IMG/VR virus record: IMGVR_UViG_3300028260_000001
Coordinates: 120,333-184,332 of that record
Source: a virus
Lineage: Duplodnaviria > Heunggongvirae > Uroviricota > Caudoviricetes
Strand: one strand, 5' to 3'
Length of the DNA stretch: 64,000 nt
A program made the position numbers and the translations under genes. Below are positions 813 to 29,156 of the stretch, in pieces. Each line of letters opens with the position of its first letter. Position 1 is the first letter of the stretch. A model generated the notes under the pieces. That model ran no database searches. It was given only the letters and a program-made list of their open reading frames with translations, and was not told the origin of the DNA.

Positions 813-832
813 GTGTAATAGTATACGAGAGG
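813..832 (+). promoter_or_regulatory. conserved 20-mer GTGTAATAGTATACGAGAGG upstream of tRNA cluster 1 (promoter candidate)
   Basis: 17/20 identity with 3639-3659, which directly abuts tRNA-Leu(TAG). Confidence 0.35.
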
Positions 833-935: not shown

Positions 936-1011
936 GGGTCATTAGTTCAATTGGCAGAACACCGGCCTCCAAAGCCGGGTGTTGGTGGTTCGAGTCCATC
1001 ATGGCCCGCCA
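936..1011 (+). tRNA. tRNA-Trp (anticodon CCA)
   Basis: Cloverleaf folded by hand: acceptor GGGTCAT/ATGGCCC, anticodon loop CUCCAAA, T-loop GGTTCGAGTCC, encoded CCA. Confidence 0.85.
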
Positions 1012-1768
1012 ATTTCATCACAGACTTCGGTCTGCAAGTCCTCTGGTCTAACACACCTTAGGCAATCGATTTTGTAAGAGCCCATGACAGGGTGTTGGGT
1101 AAGTGCACTCCACCCCACTGCGCTGAAAAGGTCGCCTGAGTCCGAATAGATGAAGGTAGAGGATCGTTTCATCACTCTCTTACAATACGTCTCTCCACTG
1201 AGAGATGCAAGACCTTGGACTTAATCCGTCCTAGGCTCTGGACTACACAGGTGTCTGATTAATCCTCAGACTAGGGCGCAGAGTTGCACTTGTGAGTTCT
1301 ATGAATGATACCCAATGACGACTGATAAAAGACTAGAGTAATCAGTTAACAGGGAAACTCGATGCCCGTACCCTCGATACCCCAAAGGCCAGATAGTCCT
1401 GGTTACTAAGGCGCTCATTCCGAAGAAGCGTGATGACTCGGCTACAACGGATTAGTAGATTCCGTCACCGGTCTACATTGAGAACCTAAGGGTTTTAGAT
1501 GTGAGGCCATCTGCACGACAGTGAGCCTTCGGGTGGTCATAGTCCCAATGAGGAAGGGCGTTTCCTCCGCGCACACGGGTGTACCTCTTGAGTGGTTACT
1601 TGGTGTGCACATATTCTCGAATACTTGCCCTCCATCGCATTCTGAAGCTGCTTGTGAGGTGAGTAGTAGATAGACCTAACTTCCGTGCTAGTCTTCATGA
1701 ACAGCGATGTGTTAGGTTGAAAAGTTCCCCAGTGGCGATCTACAAGTTTGTATAGCTGGGACTAATTA
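1012..1768 (+). ncRNA. ORF-free highly structured RNA region with group I intron-like core elements (candidate ribozyme/intron or large ncRNA)
   Basis: No ORF >=60 aa over 757 nt. CAGACTA at 1267-1273 and AGATAGTCC at 1391-1399 give the GACTA/TAGTC P7-like pairing (elements R and S). CAGGGAAACUCG GNRA hairpin at 1350-1361; multiple UUCG and GAAA hairpins. Confidence 0.3.
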
Positions 1769-1853
1769 GCCGGAATGGTGGAGTGGAATACACAACGCAC
1801 TTAAAATGCGTCGCCCATCGGGATCGCGAGTTCGAATCTCGCTTCCGGCACCA
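1769..1853 (+). tRNA. tRNA-Leu (anticodon TAA), class II with long variable arm
   Basis: Acceptor GCCGGAA/TTCCGGC, anticodon loop CUUAAAA, T-loop GAGTTCGAATCTC, CCA encoded. Confidence 0.85.
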
Positions 1854-1864
1854 AACAACATAGT

Positions 1865-1890
1865 GCTTCCCCTAGGGGAAGCTTTATGCC
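1865..1890 (+). repeat. intergenic hairpin cassette (GCTTCCCCTAGGGGAAGC + TTTATGCC)
   Basis: 18-bp perfect palindrome followed by TTTATGCCG; identical palindrome recurs at 2603-2620. Confidence 0.6.
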
Positions 1891-2630: not shown

Positions 2631-3590
2631 TCATTCAATGTAAAGGTGATCGGTACGAACCATAGACGCATCACCTGCCTTACCTAAACCGTTGAAGAAG
2701 TGGAACTCTCCATTCTCAACTGCTGAAGCGAAACCACCACGTTTGGTTAGCGTATCGCCAGTAAGGGTAAGATTACGCCAACTGTTTAGTCCAGGGATGT
2801 ATTCCCAGAAGTCAGCTAAGGAATCTGTAGCGTTACCATCCGTATAACCGCCGAACACATAGAACTTGCCATAAGCTGGAAGCAAACAGGAATAGCATCG
2901 AATGGCAGGTTGTGTGGCTGGAGCAACAAATCCGTTGTATACGTTATCGCCGATGGTATAACGAATTATGTCGTTATTCGTTTTAGATCCACCGTTAGTC
3001 AACCCACCGAAAATATAAACCCCAGTACCAGAAATTGCGATAGCGTGTCCATGTCTGGATTCTGGCAATTGTGCAATCACACGCCAAGTATTATTTGAAA
3101 TGGTGTAGACATCGGCTAACCTTAATTGCGGTGTAGCTTGAGTACCGTTCCAGCCACCAAAGAAATAGATCTCTCCTTGGTATACAACTGCACCATGGTA
3201 AGTACGTCCCAAGTTCGGAGTAGGGGTAAGAGAAGTCCAAGTGTCTGTAGCAATGTCGTAAGCATGCAACTCTTTGGTATAGGTCGATGAGTTGACCGTA
3301 TTACCGGAGAATAGATAGATCTTTCCATTCCAGTAAGACAGTGTACCACCTGACCGACCATTTGGTAAGTTAGCTAAGTTCACCCACTGTCGTGTAGTAA
3401 GATCAAATCTTCGGAAAGTCGATATTGCACCACCACTACCATCCTGAAGTCGACCACCTCCAAGGTATATACCACCGTTACAGCCAATGGCCATAGCTCC
3501 AGAGTTGCCGGGTAATAGGTCACCAACCAACGTTACGCGAGTCTCTAATTTCTTAGGGGGCTTCCCAGGAAATAATAATTGTTCAAACAT
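2631..3590 (-). CDS. Kelch-repeat beta-propeller protein (galactose-oxidase-like fold), probable receptor-binding/tail-associated
   Basis: Repeated GG....Y..D/N..T..W blades (YDIATDTWTSL, FDLTTRQWVNL, YTISNNTWRVI). Confidence 0.65.
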   Translation of the reverse strand: MFEQLLFPGKPPKKLETRVTLVGDLLPGNSGAMAIGCNGGIYLGGGRLQDGSGGAISTFRRFDLTTRQWVNLANLPNGRSGGTLSYWNGKIYLFSGNTVNSSTYTKELHAYDIATDTWTSLTPTPNLGRTYHGAVVYQGEIYFFGGWNGTQATPQLRLADVYTISNNTWRVIAQLPESRHGHAIAISGTGVYIFGGLTNGGSKTNNDIIRYTIGDNVYNGFVAPATQPAIRCYSCLLPAYGKFYVFGGYTDGNATDSLADFWEYIPGLNSWRNLTLTGDTLTKRGGFASAVENGEFHFFNGLGKAGDASMVRTDHLYIE

Positions 3591-3638: not shown

Positions 3639-3658
3639 ACGAGTATAATAATATACGA

Positions 3659-3659
<1 letters not shown>
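3639..3659 (+). promoter_or_regulatory. promoter candidate for tRNA cluster 2 (TATAAT at 3644-3649 + conserved TATACGAG)
   Basis: Perfect -10 hexamer 10 nt before the tRNA 5' end; 20-mer shared with 813-832. Confidence 0.4.
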
Positions 3660-3743
<84 letters not shown>

Positions 3744-3750
3744 ATTACCA

Positions 3751-3840
3751 GGAAGTATGGCCGAGTGGTCAATGGCTCGGGCCTTGAAAACCCGCGACCC
3801 TTAAGTGGGTCCTAGAGTTCGAATCTCTATGCTTCCGCCA
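3751..3840 (+). tRNA. tRNA-Ser (anticodon TGA), class II
   Basis: Acceptor GGAAGTA/TGCTTCC, loop CUUGAAA (31-39 C-A mismatch), 18-nt variable arm, T-loop TTCGAAT, G73, CCA. Confidence 0.8.
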
Positions 3841-3848
3841 GTTACAAA

Positions 3849-3934
3849 GCTGAGATGGCAGAGTGGTTGAATGCACGGGATTGCAAATCCTGCATCGAAA
3901 GATCTCGGGGGTTCGAATCCCTCTCTCAGCTCCA
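3849..3934 (+). tRNA. atypical class II (long variable arm, Ser/Leu-like body) tRNA with anticodon GCA (would read Cys codons UGY); discriminator U73
   Basis: Acceptor GCTGAGA/TCTCAGC, D-arm TGGCAGAGTGGTTGAATGCA, anticodon stem CGGGA/TCCTG with loop UUGCAAA, variable arm ATC-GAAA-GAT hairpin, T-arm GGGGGTTCGAATCCCTC, TCCA. Confidence 0.6.
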
Positions 3935-3935
3935 A

Positions 3936-4011
3936 GCCGCTATAGCTCAGTTGGTAGAGCAGCTGACTTGTAATCAGCAGGTCCCCGGTTCGAATCCGTG
4001 TGGCGGCACCA
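3936..4011 (+). tRNA. tRNA-Thr (anticodon TGT)
   Basis: Acceptor GCCGCTA/TGGCGGC, loop CUUGUAA, T-loop GGTTCGAATCC, CCA; 1-nt spacer to previous tRNA. Confidence 0.85.
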
Positions 4012-4090: not shown

Positions 4091-4471
4091 ATGACTCCAG
4101 AAACACTGCGTCGCCGTATTAACAATCGCCTGCTCTCTGCGGAACAACATCGTGAAATAACACAACGATTAGTAGCAGCGCAAAAGACTAAAGTAGTTCA
4201 GGTAGCCTTGCCACCTCCAACCCAAGAATGTGTGGTTGCTTACGGTTCTCGGCTAACTCCATTGCTTACACCACTGCTGGGAGATTGTACTTGGACTGAC
4301 GCCCAAATGGCGGCTGTAATCGAATCCAAGTTATATGAAGTTCGTAAGCAATTCCATGGGCCGAACAAAAGTTATGCTGACCCAGTACCTTCAGTAGAGA
4401 TCTGCGATGCTGGCCGCAGTCGATATTTCCGTCTGCTATTAAATGGTTACGAGATCGGGACTATTGGCTAA
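4091..4471 (+). CDS. hypothetical protein, translationally coupled (TAATG) to the radical SAM gene
   Basis: 126-aa ORF; AGGAAT RBS-like upstream; stop overlaps the next start. Confidence 0.55.
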   Translation: MTPETLRRRINNRLLSAEQHREITQRLVAAQKTKVVQVALPPPTQECVVAYGSRLTPLLTPLLGDCTWTDAQMAAVIESKLYEVRKQFHGPNKSYADPVPSVEICDAGRSRYFRLLLNGYEIGTIG

Positions 4472-5373
4472 TGGAAAATAAATTGATCTTCCGCGAACAT
4501 TGGTCTGAACTTGATCGGTCAGTAAACTTCGAACATCGTTTGGAAGATGGACCAGGTATGTTGGAAGCGCGGTATGTCCAACGGACTGACGATTACTTCA
4601 TCGTTTACCTGTCTTCTCAGACTGGATGTGAACAAGCCTGTCGTATGTGTTGGTTGACTCAAACAGGACAGAACAAATCTCGTGACGTTACTGTGGACGA
4701 ATATCTGCAACAAGCCGAACGAGTAATGGAACACTACGGACGACGGCTGTCTTACACCGGTAAGTTTGCTAATAAGGTCCACTTCAACTTCATGGCCCGT
4801 GGTGAACCATTGGCTAATAAGATCTTCTTGGAGAATGCCGATGAGATCTTGGGCCGCCTGCGGGACCTCGCAAAGAAATGGGCATTGACACCTAAGTTTT
4901 TGATCTCTACGATCATGCCTAAGGAGATGGGTGACTTAGCCCTGACAGATATCTTCAAAGACCCCAGCGTGTATCCTGAACTTTACTACTCAATGTATTC
5001 CACAGAGGTGAAGTTCCGTAAGCGTTGGTTGCCAAAAGCAATACCGTGTAACAATGCCTTGCGTATGCTCCGACAATGGCAAGAGCAAACAGGCAAAATC
5101 CCCAAGATTCATTACGCCTTTATCGATGGAGAAAATGACTCTGTAGACAATGTACTCGACTGCTGTAACATGGTCTATGCCTACGGTCTCACTGTGAACT
5201 GGAACATCGTACGTTACAACCCGCCGGAAGGACATGACTCAAAAGAACCACCAGAAGAATACATCTACTTCCTAGCGGATGTAATTCGAAACTTCCCTAA
5301 CGTAGGAAAGGTTAAAGTGATCCCTCGGGTGGGCACAGATGTAAAAGCTTCATGCGGTACATTCCTGAAATAA
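4471..5373 (+). CDS. radical SAM RlmN/Cfr-family RNA (adenine-C2/C8) methyltransferase-like enzyme
   Basis: LSSQTGCEQACRMCW (Cx3Cx2C as in RlmN SSQVGCALECKFC), MARGEPL, WNIVRYNPPEG and C-terminal ASCG each match an RlmN block. Confidence 0.75.
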   Translation: MENKLIFREHWSELDRSVNFEHRLEDGPGMLEARYVQRTDDYFIVYLSSQTGCEQACRMCWLTQTGQNKSRDVTVDEYLQQAERVMEHYGRRLSYTGKFANKVHFNFMARGEPLANKIFLENADEILGRLRDLAKKWALTPKFLISTIMPKEMGDLALTDIFKDPSVYPELYYSMYSTEVKFRKRWLPKAIPCNNALRMLRQWQEQTGKIPKIHYAFIDGENDSVDNVLDCCNMVYAYGLTVNWNIVRYNPPEGHDSKEPPEEYIYFLADVIRNFPNVGKVKVIPRVGTDVKASCGTFLK

Positions 5374-6190: not shown

Positions 6191-6538
6191 ATGAAATGGG
6201 AACTTGGGCGTCAAGGAACAGGTTACGAAAAACTGAAGTTGATAAACCGTTGGCGGTACTTCAGTCGTTTCAAATGGGATCTCTACTTATTGCGATATCG
6301 GGTAGGTGCAGGGATACCACGGCATCGTGATCCATTGCCAGATCACAGTCACTACAGATTAAACATCTACTTGTGGAATGCACAAGCAGGTGGTGTACCA
6401 GAACACGATGATGTGATCATAAGCAATCGCTTCTTCACATTGTTCCGTCCTGATCTACACACTCACAGCGTAAGCCAAGTAACTAAAGGTACTCGTTACG
6501 TCCTTAGTTTTGGTTTGTCTAAACGCAATACCCTTTAA
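6191..6538 (+). CDS. small 2OG-Fe(II) oxygenase-like (double-stranded beta-helix) protein
   Basis: H-R-D ... H(THS) ... R-Y-V-L-S arrangement matches the HxD/H/RxS facial triad spacing; only 115 aa. Confidence 0.5.
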   Translation: MKWELGRQGTGYEKLKLINRWRYFSRFKWDLYLLRYRVGAGIPRHRDPLPDHSHYRLNIYLWNAQAGGVPEHDDVIISNRFFTLFRPDLHTHSVSQVTKGTRYVLSFGLSKRNTL

Positions 6539-6563
6539 ACTCTATTCCATCCGCGAGAGCTAT

Positions 6564-7826
6564 ATGAAACAGACACGTACATTCGAAATCATCGGCGGTG
6601 AACCAGCTCCAGGTTCCAAGCCAATCAAAGGCTGGACCGTTGGTGTTCCAGTTGAACCCGATGCGGTTAAGCAACTCAAGAACATTGCATCGCTACCGTT
6701 CATCTATTCCCACATTGCTGTGATGCCCGATGTACATCTGGGTAAAGGTGCAACGGTAGGTTCTGTGGTTGCCACCAAAGGTGCAATCATTCCAGCAGCT
6801 GTAGGTGTTGACATCGGCTGTGGAATGGCGGCACAACGTTTGACCTTTAAGTCGACCGCACTACCAGAGTCCTTGGGTCATCTGCGTGCAGCTATCGAAG
6901 CAGCCGTTCCACATGGCCGTACTGATAACGGCGGTAAGAATGACCGTGGTGCTTTCGGTACTGTAAAGGTATTCGATCACCCAGTCAAAGCTATTCGTGA
7001 CGAAGCATTCGAACTTCGTAAGCAACTGGATTGGATCTGTGAGAAACATCCTAAGTTGGCTAAAGCAGCACAGCGTGCATGGAATCACGTAGGTACTCTC
7101 GGTACTGGTAACCACTTCATCGAACTGTGTCTGGATGAAACTGATCAAGTGTGGGTAATGCTGCATTCTGGTTCGCGTGGTATTGGTAACGCAATCGGCA
7201 CTTACTTCATCGCCAAGGCAAAAGAAGAGATGCAACGTTTCTTCATCCATCTGCCAGATGGTGACCTCGCTTACTTGCCAGAAGGCTCGAAGTATTACCA
7301 AGACTACATTGGTGCTGTATCGTGGGCACAACGGTTTGCTGCACTGAACCGTTCTTTGATGATGCATGCCACCTTGGGTGCAATCCACAACGTACTGGGT
7401 CTGCCGATCGATTCAGATATGGGTGCGATCAACTGTCACCACAACTACGTGTCGGAAGAACGACACATGGGTAACAACGTACTCGTTACTCGTAAGGGTG
7501 CCGTAAACGCTTCTCAAGGGGTGTTGGGTATTATCCCTGGGTCGATGGGTGCAAAGTCCTTTATCGTTCGTGGTAAGGGTAACCGTGATTCGTTCTGCTC
7601 GTGTTCGCATGGCGCAGGTCGAGTGATGTCTCGTACCCAAGCAGCTAAAACCTTTACGCTCGAAGATCACATCCGTGATACCGCGGGTGTAGAATGCCGT
7701 AAGGATATCGACGTGATCGATGAAACTCCAAAGGCATACAAGAACATCGAAGACGTAATGGCTGCACAAGAAGAACTGGTAGAAATCGTTCATACGCTCA
7801 AACAGTTCCTTTGTGTAAAGGGGTGA
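6564..7826 (+). CDS. rtcB: RtcB RNA 3'-phosphate/2',3'-cyclic-phosphate-5'-OH ligase
   Basis: Hallmark motifs MPDVHLGKG, GVDIGCGM, SHGAGR; start placed at MKQTRT (GAGAG RBS) although the ORF opens at 6510. Confidence 0.85.
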   Translation: MKQTRTFEIIGGEPAPGSKPIKGWTVGVPVEPDAVKQLKNIASLPFIYSHIAVMPDVHLGKGATVGSVVATKGAIIPAAVGVDIGCGMAAQRLTFKSTALPESLGHLRAAIEAAVPHGRTDNGGKNDRGAFGTVKVFDHPVKAIRDEAFELRKQLDWICEKHPKLAKAAQRAWNHVGTLGTGNHFIELCLDETDQVWVMLHSGSRGIGNAIGTYFIAKAKEEMQRFFIHLPDGDLAYLPEGSKYYQDYIGAVSWAQRFAALNRSLMMHATLGAIHNVLGLPIDSDMGAINCHHNYVSEERHMGNNVLVTRKGAVNASQGVLGIIPGSMGAKSFIVRGKGNRDSFCSCSHGAGRVMSRTQAAKTFTLEDHIRDTAGVECRKDIDVIDETPKAYKNIEDVMAAQEELVEIVHTLKQFLCVKG

Positions 7827-29117: not shown

Positions 29118-29156
29118 AAAAAAAAAATACGGCATAAAGCTTCCCCGAAGGGAAGC
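29118..29156 (-). terminator. intrinsic terminator (GCTTCCC-CGAA-GGGAAGC + CTTTATGCCGTA + U10)
   Basis: Stable UUCG hairpin followed by a T10 run on the minus strand. Confidence 0.7.

Follow-up and report, generated by a model that had tools for sequence, protein, structure and literature searches.

A large structured RNA in a tRNA cluster of Pseudomonas jumbo phages and its candidate roles

Very large, intricately folded RNAs are rare in bacteria and phages, where known examples include the ribosomal RNAs (rRNAs), group I and group II introns, RNase P, OLE, GOLLD, ROOL, HEARO and raiA, and RNAs of such size and complexity have historically been ribozymes, cores of ribonucleoproteins (RNPs) or, most recently, self-assembling nanocages. 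On a smaller scale, phage T4 makes "species 1 and 2" (rnaC/rnaD), stable RNAs other than transfer RNAs (tRNAs) that lie in a tRNA unit, are freed by tRNA-processing enzymes and are of unknown function. Here we analyse a 757-nucleotide (nt) element between the genes for tRNA-Trp(CCA) and tRNA-Leu(UAA) of a jumbo Pseudomonas phage, located at positions 1012-1768 of a 64,000-nt piece of IMG/VR record IMGVR_UViG_3300028260_000001 (hereafter the window), and describe it as a large structured non-coding RNA (ncRNA). Like the T4 species, which we compare by description only, it would be a stable phage RNA embedded in a tRNA transcription unit, whereas the T4 RNAs are ~120-140 nt long and structurally simple.

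GOLLD and ROOL, the closest described systems, are very large multi-pseudoknot RNAs of phages and prophages, often located by tRNA islands with which they are possibly co-transcribed, and their function is unknown (PMC12286853; PMC5737381). Both form RNA-only nanocages in which kissing loops detected by covariation are intermolecular bridges (PMC12286853). The element in the window resembles GOLLD in exceeding 700 nt, in its many helices and pseudoknots, in its phage origin next to tRNA genes, and in combining a conserved 3' region with a less conserved 5' and central part and a variable linker; with ROOL it shares a large multi-junction, multi-pseudoknot architecture, a phage location near tRNA islands with possible co-transcription, and loop contacts supported by covariation. 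It matches neither Rfam model, in the window region (E<=10) or in seven homologue loci (E<=1). Its conserved motifs differ from those of GOLLD and its hosts are Pseudomonas jumbo phages of the Chimalliviridae; compared with ROOL, whose mean length is 581 nt, it is longer and far more narrowly distributed. The traits of the GOLLD/ROOL kind, namely more than 500 nt with several multistem junctions and covariation-supported pseudoknots, and a phage tRNA-cluster setting, are both found here (757 nt). The element thus belongs in kind with the large ornate phage RNAs, yet is a member of neither GOLLD nor ROOL.

Other described families were likewise absent. Rfam 15 at gathering scores returned six tRNAs only from the whole window, and a 1.2-kb search of 780-2000 at E<=10 with permissive filters gave nothing credible in the gap, with no match for group I, group II intron, RNase P, GOLLD, ROOL, tmRNA or rRNA; the search with the group I model and the full Rfam library, which the original prediction had named as its check, therefore brought out neither group I nor any other family there. 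Scans of seven homologue loci (E<=1) found only tRNAs and a short module resembling large-subunit (LSU) rRNA, discussed below; a group-II-D1D4-4 match in contig L056 at E = 0.5 was discarded as chance level, being due to the GGUGAAAGUCC word of that module. In the literature we found no ncRNA described in Psa21, Phabio, D6 or the Chimalliviridae, and short pieces of the element might figure in an IMG/VR catalogue of ~10,000 candidate structured RNAs with a mean motif of 67 nt (PMC10690425). Current annotations leave the locus blank or give it spurious open reading frames (ORFs), an example being PHABIO_450, a 76-amino-acid (aa) "hypothetical protein" annotated inside the element of Phabio (L133 1636-1866), which overlaps B9, B10 and the rRNA-like module and is probably a spurious call. 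We regard it as nearly certain that the element is a functional structured RNA that constitutes a new family. It is also probable that 1012-1768 on the + strand is a member of an undescribed family of large, intricately folded phage ncRNAs acting along the lines set out below.

Conservation and covariation of the element

The region first drew attention as an ORF-free stretch, and this holds: the longest ORF touching 1012-1768 on either strand has 58 aa, below the 60 aa originally used as a limit, and no other ORF-free stretch of the window comes close in size to 797-1970 when stop-to-stop frames of at least 100 codons are counted. The window is itself a new relative, with ~80% identity to Pseudomonas jumbo phage D6 over half of its first 20 kb. 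The flanking tRNA genes are complete according to both ARAGORN and Rfam, with no exons seen, and the motifs quoted in the original prediction lie where it had placed them (CAGACTTCGGTCTG at 1021-1034, CCTTCGGG at 1526-1533, CAGACTA at 1267-1273, AGATAGTCC at 1391-1399 and CAGGGAAACTCG at 1350-1361). Folding of the single sequence against shuffles gave modest z-scores (-1.9 for the + strand and -1.6 for the - strand), and the case for structure must therefore come from comparison with relatives.

Eleven syntenic homologues were found, all of them in jumbo-phage genomes or contigs and within tRNA clusters, with pairwise identities of 47-81% over the element and sizes of ~640-950 nt. A blastn search of GenBank phages located the region in the Pseudomonas jumbo phages D6, RVTF4 and Psa21, and a divergent copy is present in Phabio. 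Exact-motif scans added four uncultured IMG/VR contigs of ~310-317 kb or fragments thereof (L038, L056, L069; L019 and L010 break inside the element), exact-pattern scans of a metagenome collection yielded one true match, contig L039, and a rearranged copy in phage Viktualia was reached via the radical-SAM gene neighbouring the locus.

Helices were derived block by block from the homologues and then counted on structure-blind MAFFT alignments, with controls in which the 3' partner was slid by 1-3 columns; counts refer to cells and not to independent evolutionary events. In block A2 (1073-1474, nine sequences, 94 pairs), 88.2% of cells were paired vs 35-43% in the slid controls and 32 pairs changed on both sides vs 10-13, values that none of 500 shuffles reached. 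Block A3 (1620-1768, ten sequences, 30 pairs) showed 92.4% paired cells vs 26-43% and 13 pairs changed on both sides vs 0-3, while block A4, the core at 1270-1470 with Viktualia included (ten sequences, 41 pairs), reached 94.8% vs 26-43%, with 22 such pairs vs 3-6. For several helices, three or four versions were found that differ throughout in sequence. The 1012-1768 stretch is thus more than a chance product, being conserved in related phages with strong base-pair covariation, and the proposal that it is a structured RNA is strongly upheld on alignments blind to structure. Among the readings originally listed, the evidence favours the third, an unrelated large structured ncRNA that is co-processed with the tRNAs.

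What is conserved in the element is RNA structure and not protein. Frequent G.U pairs, which appear in the pair tables only when the + strand is read, indicate that the RNA strand is +, that of the tRNAs. The same data speak to whether the locus might be a relic without function, be it a decayed gene, the scar of a mobile element or a captured piece of rRNA. The family is narrow, its central region varies, contigs L010 and L019 break inside it and homologues hold one rRNA-like piece, all of which would fit decay; against this, dozens of compensatory base-pair changes preserve the helices, single-stranded joiners are invariant while stems change, insertions and deletions are not multiples of three and no reading frame is conserved, and the window lacks significant rRNA similarity. 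We consider such a remnant scarcely credible.

When the full-length MAFFT alignment was folded with RNAalifold, the pseudoknots and the variable region led to a poor overall structure, and the comparative analysis was hence carried out block by block. Unconstrained pairs of the constrained fold, such as long-range pairing of the 5' leader with region C, found no comparative support.

Architecture of the fold and the group I proposal

The fold derived from these comparisons comprises ~23 helices and four contacts of the pseudoknot or kissing type, and its variable central region is set between a conserved core and a 3' domain that is highly conserved (Table 1). Its pseudoknots are B3 x B4 and K2 x B9 in the core and D2 x K3 at the 3' end, to which the loop-loop kissing contact K1 is added.

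Table 1. Coordinates of the element, its parts and its flanking features in the window
Feature	Position	Strand	Basis, sequence or variants
Promoter-like motif AATAGTATACGAGA	817..830	+	upstream of the tRNA-Trp/RNA/tRNA-Leu unit; putative promoter
tRNA-Trp(CCA)	936..1011	+	ARAGORN; Rfam tRNA model, 65 bits
Large structured ncRNA, whole element, 757 nt	1012..1768	+	no ORF of at least 60 aa; homologues; covariation
5' leader	1012-1072	+	absent or displaced in homologues with an upstream coding sequence
5' hairpin CAGAC-UUCG-GUCUG	1021..1034	+	read from sequence
Domain A	1074..1183	+	closing helix GUAAGAG 1074-80 with CUCUUAC 1177-83
Domain A interior	AUGA 1084-87 with UCAU 1169-72; stem 1088-1125	+	stem CAG/CUG, GUG/UGC, UGGG/CCCA
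Hairpin B1	1188-95 with 1200-07	+	4 pairs changed on both sides on MAFFT alignment
Hairpin B2	1213-20 with 1228-35	+	independent single-sequence folds
Pseudoknotted core	1246..1367	+	B3 crosses B4 and B4a; hairpin 1254-70 and B6 inside
B3	1246-53 with 1287-94	+	CACAGGUG/CACUUGUG; CGUUAGCGAUG/CAUGCUAACG in RVTF4, L019
B4a	1274-77 with 1364-67	+	GGGC/GCCC; GGGU/ACCC in Viktualia
B4	GAGUU 1281-85 with AACUC 1356-60	+	GAGCU/AGCUC in Psa21, L038; GCCU/AGGC in RVTF4, L019
B6	CCC 1311-13 with GGG 1352-54	+	CUC/GAG in D6
Hairpin B5	1321-26 with 1341-46	+	6/6 pairs change on both sides
Kissing contact K1, B5 loop with B7 loop	GACUA 1331-35 with UAGUC 1394-98	+	covariation
Hairpin B7	1388-92 with 1399-1403	+	3 pairs change on both sides
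Pseudoknot K2, across B9	GCGC 1411-14 with GCGU 1428-31	+	mostly invariant; GCGU/ACGU in L038 by eye
B9	CCGA 1420-23 with UCGG 1438-41	+	CCAC/GUGG in RVTF4, L019; CCCU/AGGG in Phabio by eye
Hairpin B10	1447-51 with 1461-65	+	invariant in close homologues; CGUAC/GUACG in Phabio by eye
Variable central region C, optional modules	1470..1620	+	plain hairpin 1470-1507; module GCACAC 1570-75 with GUGUGC 1603-08
Hairpin D1	ACUUGCC 1623-29 with GGUGAGU 1658-64	+	loop CCUCCAUC..CUGAAGC nearly invariant
D2, encloses D3, crossed by K3	GUAGAU 1666-71 with AUCUAC 1738-43	+	AUAGAU/AUCUAU in RVTF4
D3	CCUAAC 1675-80 with GUUAGG 1711-16	+	4 pairs changed on both sides
K3	CCCAG 1728-32 with CUGGG 1756-60	+	UCCAAC/GUUGGA in RVTF4; UCCAGC/GCUGGA in Psa21
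tRNA-Leu(UAA)	1769..1853	+	ARAGORN; Rfam tRNA model, 59 bits
Terminator-like hairpin GCUUCCCCUAGGGGAAGC, then UUUAU(GCC)	1865..1887	+	read from sequence; palindrome reported by scan on - strand

At the 5' end, the position of the first hairpin is taken by hairpins of different sequence in D6 (CCGGUU/AACCAG) and L019 (CUACUG-GAAA-CGGUAG). The helices of domain A (helices 1-3 of block A2) have 87-97% of cells paired, with eight pairs changed on both sides, and the closing helix becomes AUGAGAU/AUCUCAU in Psa21. Hairpins B1 and B2 were recovered in 8/9 homologues by independent single-sequence folds despite their differing sequences; L039 folds differently. The closing stem of the module in region C reads GCACAU/AUGUGC in L039 and GCAUAU/AUAUGC in RVTF4 in the alignment. 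In the 3' part, G.U, A-U and G-C types interchange in the D1 stem (helix 1 of block A3) while all homologues keep its loop motif; inspection by eye brought out no consistent partner with which the invariant CCUCCAUC loop could pair. K3 is 97.9% paired in the eight sequences aligned there, D6 and the window being gapped at the 3' columns of A3, and by eye D6 has UCCAGC/GCUGGA at this helix. The 3' pseudoknot domain spans 1666..1760, with the K3 3' strand ending 8 nt before tRNA-Leu.

The original prediction had read the locus as a free-standing or degenerate group I intron or ribozyme, with a helix P7 formed by CAGACUA at 1267-73 and AGAUAGUCC at 1391-99. These words do exist in the window and resemble the classical R and S elements of group I introns, whose consensus is a matter of general knowledge, and two helices of the core, B3 and B4, cross to form a pseudoknot with strands in an order like that of P3/P7. 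The proximity to a tRNA-Leu(UAA) gene is a further likeness, as introns of this class occur in tRNA-Leu(UAA) itself. Nevertheless, covariation contradicts the R/S pairing: the P7 put forward (1269-73 with 1394-98) shows 0 compensatory changes, and its 3' strand turns into UGAUC in L038, RVTF4 and L019, where the 5' partner is still GACUA (L038) or is absent, leaving C.A mismatches. The first CAGACUA sits in the hairpin at 1254-70, which is missing altogether from RVTF4 and L019. Instead of pairing with GACUA at 1269-73, the UAGUC strand covaries perfectly with the B5 loop at 1331-35, and this contact, K1, has 5/5 pairs and is 100% paired in ten sequences, with the three haplotypes GACUA/UAGUC, GAUCA/UGAUC and CAUCG/CGAUG (the last in Viktualia). 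The presumed GAAA-tetraloop hairpin at 1350-61 likewise dissolves into a multi-helix junction, in which GGG 1352-54 pairs with CCC 1311-13 and AACUC 1356-60 with GAGUU 1281-85.

No Intron_gpI match appeared in the 1.2-kb search, no P1, omega-G or P4-P6 domain could be identified, and the P4-P6 position beside B3 x B4 holds just a 17-nt hairpin that two homologues lack, with no guanosine-binding site assignable. The flanks are intact tRNAs and not exons; unlike tRNA-Leu(UAA) introns, the element lies upstream of the intact tRNA and not inside it. The 5' boundaries and 3' tails differ among homologues: a coding sequence (CDS) is inserted at the 5' boundary in five of them (Psa21, L039, L056, L069, L019), and the base before tRNA-Leu in the window is A, with no conserved G at the 3' boundary. 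A group I core at this locus, as originally put forward, is accordingly not borne out by Rfam, by covariation or by the surroundings, and we hold it to be extremely improbable.

Transcription unit and possible roles

Upstream of tRNA-Trp, the motif TAGTATACGAGA is conserved in D6, RVTF4, Psa21, L039, L056 and L069, and other tRNA clusters likewise have it on their upstream side. In Phabio, where tRNA-Trp is missing from this place, it lies directly 5' of the RNA, and a related AATAATATAC occurs in the window at 3647-3656, just before the second tRNA cluster. The motif, written (A)ATAGTATAC(GAGA), is a candidate phage promoter for tRNA operons; a scan for sigma-70-type promoters near 817-830 found none. 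Downstream of tRNA-Leu, the hairpin at 1865-1887 is G+C-rich and has the tail UUUAUGCC. Hairpins past the downstream tRNAs carry the tail TTTATGCC in D6, L038, Phabio and L010, TTTATGCT in RVTF4 and TTTATGTC in Psa21; in Viktualia, a hairpin of the TTTATGCC type follows the D1-like piece and the one after its tRNA-Leu has the tail TTTATTTC. In these phages, the hairpin with TTTATGCC seems to recur as a punctuation mark for terminators or promoters. The hairpin GCTTCCCCTAGGGGAAGC is found exactly at 1865-1882 and 2603-2620 and with 2 mismatches at 29139-29156, and the 35 nt at 2593-2627 are 100% identical to Psa21 176927-176961.

In every homologue with an intact 3' end, tRNA-Leu(UAA) or its 5' remnant stands directly after the element, and tRNA-Leu(UAA) also follows the rearranged core in Viktualia. 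From the conserved upstream motif, the downstream hairpin and this constant tRNA-Leu(UAA), we infer one transcription unit. The motif at 817, tRNA-Trp, the RNA, tRNA-Leu(UAA) and the hairpin terminator would be transcribed from a phage promoter as a tRNA operon; RNase P cleavage at the 5' end of tRNA-Leu would then set the 3' end of the RNA and trimming of the tRNA-Trp 3' end its 5' end, so that host tRNA-processing enzymes would free a discrete stable RNA. Release of a stable species in this manner seems somewhat likelier than not.

The constant neighbour also invites the view that the element acts in cis, as a leader or spacer governing how the adjacent tRNA-Leu(UAA) matures, how stable it is or how it is expressed. 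This tRNA always follows, even abutting the rearranged core of Viktualia, and its 5' end lies just 8 nt beyond the 3' pseudoknot strand. A multi-pseudoknot structure of 640-950 nt is, however, far beyond any known tRNA leader, and in D6 and Psa21 the original tRNA-Leu has been truncated and replaced by a different copy that arrived with an HNH gene, yet the RNA is fully conserved. Inspection brought out no conserved tRNA-complementary segment, and T-box-like or anticodon-complementary segments sought by eye gave nothing consistent. We judge a role of this kind very unlikely.

According to the reading we prefer, the freed RNA would be a folded scaffold that acts in trans, like the tRNA-island-associated phage RNAs GOLLD and ROOL, with K1 either intramolecular or bridging copies into a multimer. 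Its target may lie in the host translation or RNA-processing apparatus; this is the least certain step, and the copy in the window carries no mimic. Such a target is suggested by the island of tRNA, RtcB and radical-SAM genes around the RNA and by a mimic of helices H18-H20 of 23S rRNA in most members. In the window, this RNA-centred neighbourhood holds RtcB at 6510-7826, a radical-SAM (RlmN-like) gene at 4471-5373 and four further tRNAs.

A more specific form of the analogy is that the RNA self-assembles into a symmetric RNA-only multimer, a cage or ring like those of ROOL and GOLLD, with K1 and possibly other loops serving as intermolecular bridges. Size, number of helices and pseudoknots, phage origin and tRNA-island context all match GOLLD and ROOL, K1 is a covarying loop-loop contact of the type proven intermolecular in ROOL (bridge B4) and GOLLD (bridge B7), and the variable, poorly conserved central region parallels their disordered linkers. 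On the other hand, the element has no homology to either RNA, covariation cannot tell intramolecular from intermolecular pairing, and no conserved palindromic loop for symmetric self-kissing was found; we judge a multimer unlikely.

The 23S mimic lies in region C of seven homologues (D6, RVTF4, Phabio, L039, L056, L069 and L019; coordinates L001 3741-3830, L002 3610-3680, L037 ~3235-3340 on the - strand and L056 5817-5871 on the - strand, and also in L039, L069 and L019). It is a three-way junction whose columns line up one for one with E. coli 23S nt ~289-345, reproducing the three arms and key loop sequences of H18-H19-H20: the H18-like stem covaries, the H20 arm reads GAAGGUGAYAGYCCCGUA, and the loop of the H19-like hairpin is UGGAAU in 4/7, UGGAAA in Phabio and different in L039 and L019. 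L056 matches positions 330-384 of the Rfam LSU model at E = 7.5e-8, a match not reproduced when the sub-range was searched alone, and reliance was therefore placed on blastn and direct alignment. In RVTF4, blastn against only E. coli 16S and 23S gave 76% identity to 23S nt 298-339 (E = 4e-5). The E. coli S10-operon leader is a known mimic of the same H18-H20 junction. In the ribosome, the early assembly proteins uL4 and uL24 have their primary binding site at this junction (23S nt 281-359; PMC6426284).

In the window, the corresponding place holds an outer stem and one hairpin (1470-1507) with the H20 arm absent, and the same is true of L038 and probably of Psa21. No LSU match was found there at E<=10, and the best blastn words against E. 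coli 16S/23S have E = 2-18. Three of these words, CAGGAUGUUGG (H43-like), GAAGCGUGAUGA (nt 1514-like) and UACUAAGGCGC (nt 1636-like), had been considered as signs that the whole element is a mosaic or degenerate 23S rRNA; at E = 2-18 and without collinearity this was rejected. The resemblance to 23S is therefore confined to one optional module, shortened in the window, while the rest of the RNA lacks significant rRNA similarity. The module is a lead on what the family touches and not its core mechanism.

The module nonetheless raises the possibility that the RNA serves host ribosomal proteins, or other translation machinery, as a decoy or scaffold, for example by sequestering or recruiting uL4 and uL24. 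Its presence in seven homologues at the E values given above, the identity of the imitated junction as the uL4/uL24 primary site, and the report of ribosomes bound to GOLLD in pull-downs agree with this, but the module is incomplete in the window, in L038 and probably in Psa21, lies in the least conserved part of the RNA, rests in L056 on an LSU match that the sub-range did not repeat, and could be a borrowed self-folding junction with no protein partner, and the other rRNA-like words of the window are at chance level. We consider such a decoy improbable, and engagement of ribosomal proteins by the family as a whole is slightly more doubtful still. A bolder proposal, likewise improbable, would make the RNA a self-assembling particle or RNP with which nucleus-forming jumbo phages capture host ribosome-assembly proteins (uL4/uL24, by way of the H18-H20 mimic of most members) or other translation components, or a new ribozyme acting on tRNA or rRNA.

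Several points weigh against the trans-acting scaffold that we favour. Folded alone, the sequence has an energy just slightly below that of shuffles (z = -1.9), the existence, ends and stability of the transcript are predictions, and the likeness to GOLLD and ROOL draws on size, complexity and context, with no sequence or structure similarity found. The family is small (~12 sequences) and syntenic, so that common descent could account for the position next to tRNA-Leu and for part of the conservation, and the changes counted as covariation are not independent in phylogenetic terms. Because the rRNA-like module is absent from the window, Psa21 and L038, it cannot be the core function.

A further class of giant RNA in culturable Pseudomonas jumbo phages with tractable hosts (D6, Psa21, Phabio, RVTF4) would make the role of tRNA-island giant RNAs directly testable. 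The optional H18-H20 mimic offers a concrete first hypothesis, uL4/uL24 binding, and nature supplies a ready-made deletion series in domains that are duplicated (L056), lost (Phabio) or separated (Viktualia).

Distribution and natural variants

The carriers, Pseudomonas jumbo phages of roughly 300 kb, belong to the nucleus-forming Chimalliviridae, within which Psa21 (Tepukevirus) and Phabio (Phabiovirus) represent separate genera. Pattern scans of viral contigs found no carriers beyond this set, and scans of 185,579 bacterial and archaeal genomes found none but a chance match, L132, which was rejected as a homologue since it has no other motif of the element and no tRNA. Among the syntenic loci reached via the radical-SAM neighbour, those of 201phi2-1 and HPP-Temi lack the element.

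In Viktualia, the element is in two pieces (L136 1081-1446 and 4283-4578), and a divergent core lies directly upstream of tRNA-Leu(UAA) (nhmmer E = 0.002). This core keeps B4a, B4, B5, K1, B7 and B10, with new compensatory variants, while the D1 loop motif, 24 nt of which are identical to RVTF4, is found ~3 kb upstream of the core, behind tRNA-Ser and before its own hairpin terminator. The Viktualia form could be a naturally split RNA, whose core and D1 hairpin, ~3 kb apart, may work together as two pieces. By eye, the D1-like piece also resembles the domain-A word GAAAAGGUCGCC and the H20-like motif.

L056 has two tandem copies of domain A and Phabio none, and the length of region C ranges from ~45 to 250 nt among homologues. 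At ~6290-6400 of L056 (- strand), a domain A copy of the Psa21 type (GUUCGGAUAUUGGGUAAGGUAGUUGCCUCC...) precedes the copy of the D6 type.

The flanks vary as well. D6 (L001 3973-4894) and Psa21 (L003 3600-4523) retain beside the RNA a 5' fragment of the ancestral tRNA-Leu(UAA), which in D6 reads GCCGGAGTGGTGAAATTGGTTAGACGCACCACTC and ends in the anticodon stem, the Psa21 copy being homologous; a different, complete tRNA-Leu(UAA) and an HNH endonuclease gene follow. The arrangement suggests that a homing-endonuclease cassette cut the tRNA gene and supplied a new copy in its place. On the other side, tRNA-Ser(GCU) lies between tRNA-Trp and the RNA in D6, RVTF4 and Psa21 (L001 3221-3310, L002 3082-3171), and the window and L038 lack it. 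In Psa21, the inserted CDS, annotated as a polysaccharide lyase family 7 protein, stands between tRNA-Ser(GCU) and the RNA; the other four homologues named above also have a CDS upstream of the RNA. Contigs L010 and L019, from the same sample, both end (position 1) inside the conserved D1 loop, a pattern suggesting that strain variants occurring together, with this invariant stretch in common, broke the assembly.

Farther along the window, the second tRNA cluster at 3659-4011 encodes Leu-UAG, Ser, Cys and Thr, and the orthologues of the radical-SAM gene in D6 and Psa21 are annotated as RlmN.

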